From Escherichia phage PSK8: a stretch of DNA of 44,592 bases. This document shows positions 19,911 to 23,514 of this stretch, in pieces. Where the stretch lies: sequence record PP541515.1. The stretch is one strand, 5' to 3'. The translations under genes and the position numbers were made by a program. Positions within the stretch are counted from its first letter, which is position 1. Every line of letters begins with the position of its first letter. The notes beneath the pieces are model-generated. The model searched no databases, was not told the origin of the DNA, and was given only the letters and a program-made list of their open reading frames with translations.

Positions 19911-19934
19911 ATTTACCGGACACTATAGAAGAGA
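19911..19934 (+). promoter_or_regulatory. SP6-like phage promoter (ATTTACCGGACACTATAGAAGAGA)
   Basis: Consensus match about 80 nt upstream of tailspike 1. Confidence 0.75.
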
Positions 19935-20012
19935 TAAGGTAGAGCCGTTCTTTTGAGCGGCCTATTACTAGCCAATCTTCATAGGGAGGGTTGGGAAGTA
20001 ATAGGAGGTTTA

Positions 20013-21905
20013 ATGGCAAGATTAACTCGCCCTGTTAGTGTATTTAATAGTCTGATGGATATTACTTATCCATGCTCCACTAATGGTGGAAAAGCTGAAC
20101 TACTACAGGTTATCCCAGGACGTATGTCTGGTGGTGGCATCCTACTTTGGGATGCTAGTATGCCTCAGTCAAATCATAATGGTATTACCATACTCAGCCC
20201 AGAAGCGAAGTGGGACGGCACACTAGAAGGACTTAAGTCTTATAGGAAGAGTGGAGGAACTGGCAATGGTTGCTGGGTTCGACCACGCAAAGGGACTGAT
20301 CTGATGGCATCTTGGGCTGGTGTTGACACAGATGGTGACTGGATTGCAGATGAACCACTTATGGCGCTGTGTCAGATTGCACATACACAACGCCGTAATA
20401 TACGCATAGATTCTGGGGCTATCATTCGTTGTGGTTTCACAACCACAATCTCCCAGCAAGATAAGCATCGTATTATGTCTCAAACATCTTTTGTATTACG
20501 TGGGTTAAGAAACTTCTCCATATATGCAGATCAAGATGTAGAAGTAATAACAGACCATCCTGTACACCGTGAGCGTACAGTATTCTTCTTAGAGGATTGC
20601 GATAAGGTTACAATCTCAGGTCTTAAGTTTAATTCTGACTTCAGCGATTACTCTTTTGAACCTCACAGCCCTTATGAGCACCACATCAATGAGCACTGGC
20701 TAGGCGTAGTGGCAGAGGCTTGTGGAACTATTGAGGTACGCAGATGTAAGTTCAATGCACCGCAGTTTGCTGTAAAGGCAGATTGTTTTAATAGAACAGA
20801 CGGGCGATGGAATGACACAGTTGCAGTAAAAGATTGCTTCTTCCAGTATGCTACAAACTATTGCTTTTTATCACGTAAGTTACGACATTACATCTTCTCT
20901 GACAATGAAGTAAGATTTAATGGACGTAAGTGGCATACATACGGAGAGGCTTGTGCACCTACTACCTATACTGAGAATCAGATTATCACTCGTAACCGTT
21001 TCATAGATCAGATTGCTGGTCAAAGCTGTATAACCCCTGGTTCTTATGCTAAGCAAGTCCTTATTTCAGATAACTTCTGTCAACGTAGTAATGGTATCTT
21101 TGTTGAGATAGGCAGTGCTAGTAATATTAATATTCTTAACAACGTCTCCAAATCTACAGGCGAACGCATCGTCCACGGAAGCGATAAGTATGCAGGAACT
21201 ACACACATCCTTCTAGTATCTGGGGCAGTTGATGATGAACCTGCTGGTGGGTTAAGTAATATCTTGATTCAAGGTAATAACTTCCAAGGTGGTGGTTATG
21301 CCTTACAAGAGTACAATACGGGTATCCCTATTCGTCGCGGGTTGGATATTCTTAATAACCACCTTGTAGATTGTATCCCACCAGCCTGCACTAACCAATC
21401 CTTTAAGTATATTCGGGTAGAAGGTAACTACATTCAAGCTCCCGATGATTACCCAGATATGGCTATTGCAGGGCAACACCCTATTATTAAGGATAATGTC
21501 CTTATCGGTGTGCGATTAAGGGCTAGAGACTTAGGTTATACTGTTGTAGGTTTAAAAGTAGTAGGTAATACTTTTACTGCAAATAGTGTATCATCTAAGT
21601 TCCCTGCGCTTATCGACTACACTGAGCTAGAAGACCTTGAAGCATATGACAACGCAGCAGGCATTCAGGCCTCTTATGACAGCTTTATAGTCGCACCTGC
21701 TAATTGTAATAAAATTAGCTTTATGAAAGTTGGTATGGTCGAAGGCTTTCTACAGACACCGGCAGTTGTCTATGGTAGTAAGTTGCAAAATCAGAAGGCA
21801 GGTGCTATTGTTGGCAATAGTTCACCTGGGTCTGCACATGCTTGTGCTGCATTCGTGAGCACTTCTAGTGGTGGTTGGGGTTTTATAAACTACGTTCCAG
21901 CATAA
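20013..21905 (+). CDS. Tailspike protein 1 (beta-helix, probable polysaccharide depolymerase)
   Basis: AGGAGG RBS then ATG 20013; 630 aa with repeated GN/NN beta-helix-like segments; located after lysis genes as in K1-5-like phages. Confidence 0.8.
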   Translation: MARLTRPVSVFNSLMDITYPCSTNGGKAELLQVIPGRMSGGGILLWDASMPQSNHNGITILSPEAKWDGTLEGLKSYRKSGGTGNGCWVRPRKGTDLMASWAGVDTDGDWIADEPLMALCQIAHTQRRNIRIDSGAIIRCGFTTTISQQDKHRIMSQTSFVLRGLRNFSIYADQDVEVITDHPVHRERTVFFLEDCDKVTISGLKFNSDFSDYSFEPHSPYEHHINEHWLGVVAEACGTIEVRRCKFNAPQFAVKADCFNRTDGRWNDTVAVKDCFFQYATNYCFLSRKLRHYIFSDNEVRFNGRKWHTYGEACAPTTYTENQIITRNRFIDQIAGQSCITPGSYAKQVLISDNFCQRSNGIFVEIGSASNINILNNVSKSTGERIVHGSDKYAGTTHILLVSGAVDDEPAGGLSNILIQGNNFQGGGYALQEYNTGIPIRRGLDILNNHLVDCIPPACTNQSFKYIRVEGNYIQAPDDYPDMAIAGQHPIIKDNVLIGVRLRARDLGYTVVGLKVVGNTFTANSVSSKFPALIDYTELEDLEAYDNAAGIQASYDSFIVAPANCNKISFMKVGMVEGFLQTPAVVYGSKLQNQKAGAIVGNSSPGSAHACAAFVSTSSGGWGFINYVPA

Positions 21906-21911
21906 TCACAA

Positions 21912-21935
21912 GGCAGTGCGTAAGCACTGCTTTTC
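21912..21935 (+). terminator. Hairpin terminator in the 85-nt spacer between the tailspike genes
   Basis: GCAGTGC-GTAA-GCACTGC perfect 7-bp stem followed by TTTTC. Confidence 0.6.
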
Positions 21936-21990
21936 ACGCAACTTTTCTTAAAGGTTATCATGGTGGTAGCCTTTCAGAAAAGGAGACTAT

Positions 21991-23514
21991 ATGGCATTAC
22001 AGAGACTTAGCTCTGAACTTGTTAAGTTCAAGTCATACCTTACTGGTTCTGTAGAGCGTGGTTTGAGAAATAAACTTAGTGATATTGTATATGTGACAGA
22101 TTTTGGAGCTAAAGGTGATGGTGTTGCAGATGACTCAGCAGCATTCCAAGCAGCCATTGATGCAGCAGGTTTCCAAGGTGAAGTATGGATTCCACCTGCA
22201 AAAGTTGATTGGGTGTTTAAGCAAGAAGTCCTTATCCGTACACCTATATGCATTCGCATGATTGGTGGTGGCTCCTGTGTAACAACAAAGCAACGTAATC
22301 GCATTCGTGTGCATGGACACATCAATGCATTCAAGTTAGTACCATCCCAGGATGGATACATGTTTGGTTACGGTATCACAGGAGTACATTTAGCTGACCT
22401 TCGCATTGAAGGAGATGATCTTAATAGCCATGGCTTTCAAGCAGTATGCGTAGACGAGTCCGTTAATAATGGAAACTACCATGTACGTGAGTGCTTGTTT
22501 GAACGTAACAAGATACGATACATGGATTATGGTTTTAACCTTCGTGGTATATGCTACCTAAATGAGTGGTATAGTAATAGATGTCTATGGTGTTCTACTG
22601 CATGTCATGTAGATAGGGTAAGTGGTGCAACAGAAGGCTCTAGTAATCAGTCTCGCTTCTTTGGTAATGAGTTTGTAATGTGTGATAGGGCTTTAGTTCT
22701 TTCAACAGAAGGACATCATGGGTCACAGACAATTATCGGAAATACATTATCAGAGGGTAAGATAGGCTTACTGCTTGGTTTCAATGTACAACTATGCATG
22801 ATGGGTAATCAGGTTGAAAGTAATGAATGGTATGGTGTTAATATTTCAATACCAGCAAACATTCAAAACCCTGCATCGGAGCACTCAAAACTCATCGTAG
22901 GTAATTGCTTCTTATCCAATGGGACAGATATTGTAGTAGCTAAGAATACAACGGCATTCGCTGGTGGTTTCCCATTCTCCCTGAAGATTGATGACAACTC
23001 TTTTGCTCAGACAAAGCAGAAAGTATTAGAGATAACTGCACCAACTGGACCTCAAGAGTTTGATTCTAGTTTGTTCGTATTAGGGCGCAATAATATCTTC
23101 TCTAAGGAAGGGGAGCAGACTGTCACCGTTCCTCCTGAAATGATTCCAGATGGTTGGAAAGGTTACAGAGGCTACCAAGAGGATGGTAAGGTAACTATCA
23201 GTGGGTTAGTGTCTGGTGGCCAAGGTCAAGTTGTTGGGCGTATAGTAATACCTTATGGTAAGCAATGCTACATTAAGTACACACTTGCAAATATGAATAA
23301 GTTAGTAAGTGCAGGGTATGCTTCTACCGCAGGTTCTATTCGTATAGTTGATGCCACAGACCCAGACAGCCCTAAGGTGTTGAAAGATGAGTTCACCTCT
23401 GCTGGTGAGTTGTTTATACCTAAGGTGTCTGCCAATAAGACAATTGTTATATCTTCTAACTCTACTGATGATTCACATGTCTGTGCATCTACTGTAGAGT
23501 ATTGCATTACATAA
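21991..23514 (+). CDS. Tailspike protein 2 (pectate-lyase-fold depolymerase)
   Basis: Strong AAAGGAG RBS; N-terminal DFGAKGDGVADDSAAFQAAIDAAG typical of pectate_lyase_3 depolymerases. Confidence 0.8.
   Translation: MALQRLSSELVKFKSYLTGSVERGLRNKLSDIVYVTDFGAKGDGVADDSAAFQAAIDAAGFQGEVWIPPAKVDWVFKQEVLIRTPICIRMIGGGSCVTTKQRNRIRVHGHINAFKLVPSQDGYMFGYGITGVHLADLRIEGDDLNSHGFQAVCVDESVNNGNYHVRECLFERNKIRYMDYGFNLRGICYLNEWYSNRCLWCSTACHVDRVSGATEGSSNQSRFFGNEFVMCDRALVLSTEGHHGSQTIIGNTLSEGKIGLLLGFNVQLCMMGNQVESNEWYGVNISIPANIQNPASEHSKLIVGNCFLSNGTDIVVAKNTTAFAGGFPFSLKIDDNSFAQTKQKVLEITAPTGPQEFDSSLFVLGRNNIFSKEGEQTVTVPPEMIPDGWKGYRGYQEDGKVTISGLVSGGQGQVVGRIVIPYGKQCYIKYTLANMNKLVSAGYASTAGSIRIVDATDPDSPKVLKDEFTSAGELFIPKVSANKTIVISSNSTDDSHVCASTVEYCIT

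Follow-up and report, generated by a model that had tools for sequence, protein, structure and literature searches.

Escherichia phage PSK8 (sequence record PP541515.1) was analysed over its full 44,592 nucleotides (nt), hereafter the window, with a focus on two tailspike genes that follow each other on the + strand between positions 19911 and 23514. The first gene, spike 1 (20013-21905, 630 amino acids), is preceded by a phage promoter of the SP6 type, ATTTACCGGACACTATAGAAGAG (19911-19933, + strand), which has an exact GACACTATAGAAG core and a predicted transcription start at G19928. Its ATG at 20013, behind AGGAGG at 20003-20008, differs from the upstream TTG given in a mechanical list of open reading frames (ORFs), and its product consists of the peptide MARLTRP, a small and poorly modelled N-terminal domain and a predicted right-handed beta-helix. 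A promoter-less spacer of 85 nt (21906-21990) leads to the second gene, spike 2 (21991-23514, 507 amino acids), whose ATG at 21991 lies five nt downstream of the ribosome-binding site (RBS) AAGGAG at 21980-21985. The second product begins with the docking peptide MALQRLSSELVK, followed by a helix, a DFGAKGDG motif, a predicted right-handed beta-helix and a C-terminal beta-sandwich. A gp37-like gene on the same strand (14225-15187) encodes an adaptor of 320 amino acids, proposed to carry both spikes.

All elements that a sequence-only reading of this DNA had described were found in their places, and its view of the locus as a K1-5-type arrangement is supported. More specifically, we consider it very probable that the window, a new Vectrevirus, contains the canonical dual receptor-binding locus of K1-5/SP6-like podophages, which is built on an adaptor. 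The layout is already known and by itself adds nothing new to phage biology; what is new is the pairing of the spikes and a second spike that is unrepresented in curated phage genomes.

A K1-5-type dual receptor-binding locus

The backbone was placed by megablast of positions 19900-23600 and 1-19900 against 50,697 phage records. The matches fall on Vectrevirus genomes (K1-5, mutPK1A2, LL11, VEc3 and others), and identity to K1-5 and mutPK1A2 amounts to 88.6-89% over 94-98% of the query. We take the roughly 89% identity to the closest records to be less than is usually required within a species. The window holds a K1-5-like Vectrevirus genome in circularly permuted form: the right end of K1-5 aligns at about 24163, followed by the early region with the RNA polymerase (27157-29784). 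The tailspike pair had been placed at the right end, which is correct in terms of the canonical map.

Every defining feature of the K1-5/SP6 dual receptor-binding system that could be tested is present, namely the adaptor, both docking peptides, the gene order, the spacer, the single promoter and the backbone. The promoter is one of 11 SP6-type promoters in the window, and its sequence is kept in K1-5, LL11 and T147P9. With a scoring matrix built from these same 11 promoters, it reaches 41.3 bits, whereas no second phage promoter was found across spike 1 and the spacer, where the best score is -6.8 bits. A phage promoter is thus found only before the first of the two genes, as had been proposed.

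The gene at 14225 had been described as a short adaptor gene, and its product does contain the T7 tail-fibre N-terminal domain (Pfam PF03906, Phage_T7_tail) at residues 3-153, with further matches to YadA_stalk and DUF4183. It matches PHROG 2710 (E 3e-140) and aligns end to end with K1-5 gp37 at 78% identity, and its size fits the approximately 300-320 amino acids of such adaptors, which have no receptor-binding domain of their own. While the N-terminal 160 amino acids are conserved, the C-terminal half is mosaic, with at least three variants among the window and the related loci L140, L141, L004, L006, L013 and L014. Which variant is present is independent of the spikes that a phage carries: L004 shares spike 2 with the window, but over adaptor residues 220-311 the two are only 46% identical.

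Attachment of the spikes had been expected to involve adaptor-binding N-termini of about 150 residues. Comparison with K1-5 points instead to peptides of 7 and 11 residues. According to the account given in PMC6872550 (citing Leiman 2007), K1-5 gp46 docks on the adaptor via the heptapeptide MAKLTKP and gp47 via the undecapeptide MIQRLGSSLVK. The N-terminus of spike 1, MARLTRP, is identical to the former at five of seven positions, the two differences being K-to-R changes, and MALQRLSSELVK of spike 2 corresponds to the latter. The gp37-like adaptor on the tail would carry two different trimeric beta-helix tailspikes, each docked by a very short N-terminal peptide. In L004, the first-position spike (4491-5915) starts with MAKLTRV, which resembles the heptapeptide, and continues with a helix of the kind usual in second-position spikes (LVKSKIAGAVQRLLEDKL); judged by these sequences, it looks like a protein that shifted from position 2 to position 1.

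The closest known system is the gp37/gp46 (K5 lyase)/gp47 (endosialidase) set of K1-5, which the window resembles in its genus-level backbone, its adaptor, promoter position, docking peptides and gene order, and in having gp48 next. The dual tail-protein system of K1-5 is described by Scholl 2001 and Leiman 2007, as summarised in PMC6872550. The gap between gp46 (ending at 41265) and gp47 (starting at 41351) is also 85 nt long, and 79 of the 85 nt are identical to the window. Unlike K1-5, the window encodes receptor-binding bodies unrelated to the K5 lyase and the endosialidase: its spike 2 is a beta-helix rather than a beta-propeller sialidase and is without a C-terminal chaperone domain. The C-terminal half of the adaptor is also another variant, which is included in the overall 78%. 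Salmonella phage SP6 shares the adaptor with two spikes, an 83-nt spacer, the two spacer hairpins described below (the first kept by compensatory changes, the second near-identical) and a conserved spike 1 leader. SP6 differs in belonging to another genus (about 72% nt identity), in having different spikes and in using an SP6-specific promoter variant. Its two-tailspike locus is the subject of Gebhart 2017 and Tu 2017, as cited in PMC6872550.

Exchange of spike genes between conserved joints

Compared to K1-5 and LL11, DNA homology stops at 20026, in codon 5 of spike 1, and is back at 21903. It then continues through the spacer to 22112-22122, in codons 41-44 of spike 2, so that amino acids 1-44 (21991-22122, + strand) form a conserved N-terminal docking module. 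Homology to K1-5, LL11 and T147P9 returns at 23519-23520 (23519 for K1-5 and LL11), five nt past the spike 2 stop codon, at the beginning of a gp48-like small ORF (23521-23669, + strand).

The bodies between these points occur in several combinations. Vectrevirus phages T147P1, T147P9 and LF31P3, isolated on O6:H1 ST73 E. coli (Gaborieau et al., bioRxiv 10.1101/2023.11.22.567924), resemble the window in spike 1 (95% protein and about 90% DNA identity) and in the spacer, and differ in having a second spike of 570 amino acids of the LL11 type and an adaptor of the K1-5 type. Spike 2 recurs at 92% in Logan contigs L004 and L005 (ERR1302786_543 and ERR1302877_3198), which share the 85-nt spacer with the window. 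Their backbone is like that of Salmonella phage PST_H2 (96% identity to PST_H2 and 72-75% to the window for L004), and their first spike is a different protein of 474 amino acids, with a body 66% identical to TSP2 of the Salmonella Kuttervirus PhiSH19. Designating the first-position spikes of the window and L004 as A and B, and the second-position spikes of the window and LL11 as X and Y, the pairings are A+X in the window, A+Y in T147P9, B+X in L004, K5 lyase+Y in LL11 and K5 lyase+endosialidase in K1-5.

The block that L004 shares with the window extends from the first spacer hairpin to the stop codon of spike 2 (21911-23514) at 92.7% nt identity. Because this block sits in a backbone of 72-75% identity, it indicates that the spacer plus spike 2 was transferred across genera as a unit. 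Within it, the first 80 nt contain a single difference, and the synonymous sites of spike 2 have diverged to a synonymous substitution rate (dS) of 0.25. The proposal of a modular, exchangeable second receptor-binding gene is directly supported by this block, and it holds for the first gene too, as seen in the T147P9 group. These alignments are clear evidence for an exchange of each spike gene as a whole, from one conserved non-coding joint to the next. The spike 1 leader, the spacer together with codons 1-44 of spike 2, and the beginning of gp48 would serve as fixed joints, and the receptor-binding bodies would be exchanged between them by recombination, even across genera. The first of these mapped joints reaches from the leader to spike 1 codon 5, the second covers the spacer and 44 spike 2 codons, and the third lies where gp48 begins; for Vectrevirus therapy phages, they are ready-made sites for host-range engineering.

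Within spike 2, homology to K1-5 DNA ends exactly after the DFGAKGDG motif (22099-22122). In T7-type spike 2 homologues (P0003, residue approximately 246), anchor domains are followed by the same motif, which may represent an in-frame recombination joint between anchor and receptor-binding modules.

Conserved hairpins and transcription of the pair

The spacer keeps its length of 85 nt and nearly its whole sequence in K1-5, LL11, T147P9 and L004, and SP6-like loci have one of 83-84 nt. The spacer of the window matches SP6 at 92% identity, compared with about 72% for the alignable backbone, and in its 3' 53 nt only one position differs from SP6. The 2001 work of Scholl reportedly describes, for K1-5, an 85-base intergenic region that has no promoter and carries two symmetric elements.

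The first hairpin in the spacer (hairpin 1; GCAGTGC-GTAA-GCACTGC, 21913-21930, + strand) has a perfect 7-bp stem followed by TTTT at 21931-21934, and a predicted energy of -15.7 kcal/mol with flanking pairs included. On the + strand of the whole window (44.6 kb), only two other perfect GC-rich hairpins of at least 6 bp come with a T-rich tail. In all of 19 distinct spacers, hairpin 1 forms a perfect stem of 6-7 bp with a 4-nt loop, in four stem versions (GCAGTGC, GCAGCGC, GCGCGGC and GCACGGC), each followed by 2-4 T. Three pairs are changed on both sides in an alignment of 14 sequences, and the covariation score is above those of all 500 shuffles and all slid controls; given these compensatory changes and this score, we conclude that the structure is selected.

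The 85-nt length, the perfect stem and the T-tract had all been reported for this spacer and are all there, the T-tract being four T long. Calling the hairpin a terminator overstates it, however, since it has no proper U-run: compared with an intrinsic terminator, the GC-rich hairpin is stable, whereas four T stand in place of at least 5-6 U. The site was not called by a terminator scan of the + strand. Hairpin 1 resembles the class I T-phi terminator of T7 as a GC-rich stem-loop between late genes, and differs in being without a long U-run. Without such a run read-through would be expected, and hairpin 1, compatible with read-through, would do no more than terminate leakily or protect the 3' end of the mRNA. 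Elsewhere in the window, a T-phi-like terminator lies directly 3' of the major capsid gene (4104-4139), with a predicted stem of 11 pairs (one G-U), a 5-nt loop and TTCTTTTTG after the stem-loop. Its predicted energy is -16.4 kcal/mol, and as a terminator candidate it surpasses hairpin 1.

The second hairpin (hairpin 2; 21942-21982, + strand) spans 41 nt and is predicted to consist of 7 bp, a 1x1 mismatch, 11 bp and a triloop, with an energy of -19.7 kcal/mol and a z-score of -4.9. Its 3' arm overlaps the RBS of spike 2 and covers half of it. The RBS had been called very strong, and AAGGAG does stand five nt upstream of the ATG, with the caveat that half of it would be held in the base of hairpin 2. 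In 14 sequences, 99% of the alignment cells are paired. Thirteen pairs never vary, four vary on one side only, to or from G-U with pairing kept, and a fifth, terminal pair is broken in two sequences. The hairpin 2 sequence is unique in the window, and Rfam had no match in 19300-25700 at E up to 1. In viral contigs, the 14-mer of its loop, TATCATGGTGGTAG, occurs in at least 120 stretches, two of them relevant among the matches listed, and an 18-mer scan returned 8 stretches, two of them new.

The spike 1 leader shares the design of the spacer hairpin pair: a small GC hairpin (19944-19961) is followed by a long irregular hairpin (19961-20005) that overlaps AGGAGG at 20003-20008. RNAfold gives -37.5 kcal/mol and a z-score of -4.8 for this leader (19944-20005, + strand). 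Vectrevirus, SP6-like and PST_H2-like loci all have it in near-invariant form; in the SP6 lineage, one A-U pair has become G-C by a compensatory change. Several other foldable promoter leaders in the window have a small 5' hairpin, and none has a long one.

With these elements in place, we propose that both spike genes would be transcribed late as a single message by the phage RNA polymerase, from the 19911 promoter and from promoters upstream. The polymerase would read past the conserved, U-poor hairpin 1 in the 85-nt spacer, and spike 2 would be translated from its own RBS, partly embedded in the strongly conserved hairpin 2. Several points weigh against this account and its extension to receptors. 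A terminator is annotated at the position of hairpin 1 in the GenBank record of LL11, and the UAB_Phi78 paper gives a TransTerm terminator after the tailspike gene, again at the hairpin position (PMC4837284). The near-invariance of hairpin 2 exceeds what pairing needs, so that a further sequence-specific function is possible. Finally, the host association of spike 1, discussed below, is correlative. No relevant transcript or RNase III data for these genera turned up in a literature search.

The pair of leader hairpins that overlaps the RBS might be the only part of the locus that is new biology. We tentatively suggest that each K1-5/SP6-like spike gene is headed by an undescribed, ultra-conserved cis-RNA module found across genera, made up of a small GC hairpin and a hairpin of about 40 nt that buries part of the RBS. 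This module could process the message or control its translation, setting the relative amounts of the spikes, and could double as a universal DNA docking site for receptor-gene exchange; this is a possibility to which we give less than even weight. If it is true that the conserved leader hairpins control expression, it would become clear how a single promoter can provide the same adaptor with two spikes.

A possible, though doubtful, alternative is that the long hairpins at 19961-20005 and 21942-21982 are processing sites of the host RNase III, as in T7. Cleavage would yield single-gene mRNAs, leave hairpin 1 as a protective 3' end of spike 1, free the half-buried RBSs and tune the two spikes to similar amounts. 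T7-group phages use RNase III sites between genes, and the long hairpins of the window are similar to those of T7 in size and position, a likeness drawn from predicted folds. Both are irregular hairpins of about 18-20 bp with an internal mismatch or loop, located directly upstream of a start codon and overlapping the RBS, and among the foldable promoter leaders of the window the long hairpin is limited to spike genes. The substitutions keep pairing via G-U, pointing to RNA of the + strand. On the other hand, no Rfam family matches, near-perfect sequence conservation is not required by RNase III, and the stems are at the short end for its substrates. By fold prediction, 18 and 18-20 positions are paired, interrupted by the internal mismatch or loop; a T7-type site is an irregular intergenic hairpin of approximately two helical turns.

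We regard it as rather unlikely that the spacer and leader are conserved solely as patches of DNA homology, homogenised by repeated exchange, with incidental RNA folds. It is true that the breakpoints of homology coincide with the spacer and the leader, and that at least three phage lineages have this spacer next to unrelated spikes. Yet homogenisation leaves unexplained that hairpin 1 changes its sequence while keeping its pairing, with its four stem versions and three compensatory pairs. The folding z-scores of about -5 and the contrast between one difference in 80 nt of spacer and a dS of 0.25 in the co-transferred gene also speak against it.

Much less probable still is that hairpin 1 is an efficient terminator and that spike 2 uses a sigma-70-like promoter of its own in the spacer (TTCACG-17 nt-TATCAT, 21933-21961). 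A consensus scan gives 9 of 12 matches there, and the terminator annotations at hairpin 1 cited above would fit such an arrangement. However, the region holds fewer sigma-70-like sites than shuffled sequence (4 versus 10.4), and the -35 element is not kept in K1-5, which has TTAGCG; we rejected the internal promoter as probably a chance match on these two grounds. Moreover, the phage polymerase transcribes late structural genes in this phage group and finds no promoter of its own in the spacer, and the U-run of 2-4 T after hairpin 1 is too short for an efficient terminator. K1-5 virions also bear both spikes on the adaptor (Latka 2019 review, PMC6872550), which is an ill fit with a strong block between the genes.

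Spike bodies and candidate receptors

Both ORFs had been proposed to encode beta-helix tailspikes, and AlphaFold indeed models both as right-handed beta-helices. For spike 1, the AlphaFold 2 model built with a homologue alignment has a mean predicted local distance difference test (pLDDT) score of 81.7, with the beta-helix at residues 100-560 approximately and poor confidence at residues 1-93. Pfam gives a sub-threshold Beta_helix match, and the Foldseek matches in the PDB are GH110 enzymes and the HK620 tailspike. The spike 2 model, also based on a homologue alignment, has a mean pLDDT of 87.8 and comprises a right-handed beta-helix and a C-terminal beta-sandwich; Foldseek matches it to the tailspikes and depolymerases Sf6, AM24 and KP32gp38. 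No close characterised homologue was found, the best fold matches being a mix of lyases, epimerases and hydrolases. PDB profile searches with homologue alignments mostly matched N-terminal anchor domains that are absent from the spikes of the window and said little on the catalytic bodies. A duplication between the two genes was rejected, as the spikes have no sequence relationship (BLASTP E 2.5).

A pectate-lyase-type N-terminal signature had also been described for spike 2. It is present, as a PF12708 (Pect-lyase_RHGA_epim) match above the cut-off (36.2 bits versus 27, E 7e-9), and covers residues 34-69 only. The DFGAKGDG motif behind this match lies within a stretch common to spike 2 and the K1-5 endosialidase (residues 3-60 versus residues 2-65 of gp47, 50% identity, E 1e-13). 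Because this stretch is shared with the endosialidase, the signature alone is no proof of a pectate-lyase fold; it is the structure model that shows the fold.

Each spike aligns over 91-100% of its length to most full-length homologues at 42-55% identity. These homologues bear other anchors, such as the T7-fibre N-terminus, the TSP1/gp66 N-terminus and the P22 head-binding domain. Ratios of non-synonymous to synonymous substitution rates (dN/dS) relative to the nearest relative are 0.07 for spike 1 and 0.16 for spike 2, so that both are under purifying selection. We rejected as extremely improbable the reading that either spike is a decaying and inactive remnant, comparable to the 111-residue first-position stubs of K1E-type phages: relatives do hold stubs at both positions, with 111 residues in L007, L014, L015 and L017 and about 50 in L146, but the near-full-length alignments, the confident beta-helix models and the low dN/dS values all contradict it for the window.

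The spacer is kept in the loci with shortened spikes. This applies to the K1E-type first-position ORFs of L007, L014, L015 and L017, to L146, where the second-position ORF (approximately 3417-3560) keeps the docking peptide, and to L016, which encodes a second-position protein of 289 amino acids (17614-18483).

With regard to receptors, spike 1 has 95% amino acid identity to the receptor-binding proteins of T147P1, T147P9 and LF31P3, and these three phages were isolated on strains T147 (O6:H1, K5) and LF31 (O6:H1, no capsule type listed). Remoter relatives of spike 1, at 32-49% identity, belong to phages from strains 536 (O6), T147, CFT073 and ATCC 25922, the last two of which we also take to be O6. 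An O-antigen target is favoured because the hosts have O6 in common, whereas their capsule types are different or unlisted. On this host association, the O6 O-antigen is a likelier target of spike 1 than a capsule would be, and the idea of two capsule depolymerases, as in the K1-5-type phages invoked earlier, is not supported. As a candidate O6-antigen spike, spike 1 would be directed at a serogroup to which CFT073, 536 and further major uropathogenic strains of E. coli belong. The small N-terminal domain of spike 1 (residues 12-105 approximately, 20046-20327) is kept across the spike 1 family and also stands alone in Pseudomonas and Shewanella phage proteins (PHROGs 32929 and 27346); its AlphaFold confidence is below 50 over most of residues 1-93.

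Spike 2 had no DNA or protein match past its first 45 residues in the collection of 50,697 phage records, save two weak partial ones at 28-31% identity, and a blastn 'distant' search with its body against phage genomes gave no match. Apart from a 46% homologue found in chromosomes of Pseudescherichia, cluster look-ups offered no clue to the host. Curated phage genomes lack spike 2, which thus marks an unassigned surface-glycan specificity in E. coli or Salmonella.

Downstream of the locus, positions 23850-24165 are GC-rich and ORF-poor. SP6-like contigs end here (approximately 23894-23936), as does the alignable right end of K1-5, and the region is probably the terminal-repeat and genome-end region, collapsed in a permuted assembly.

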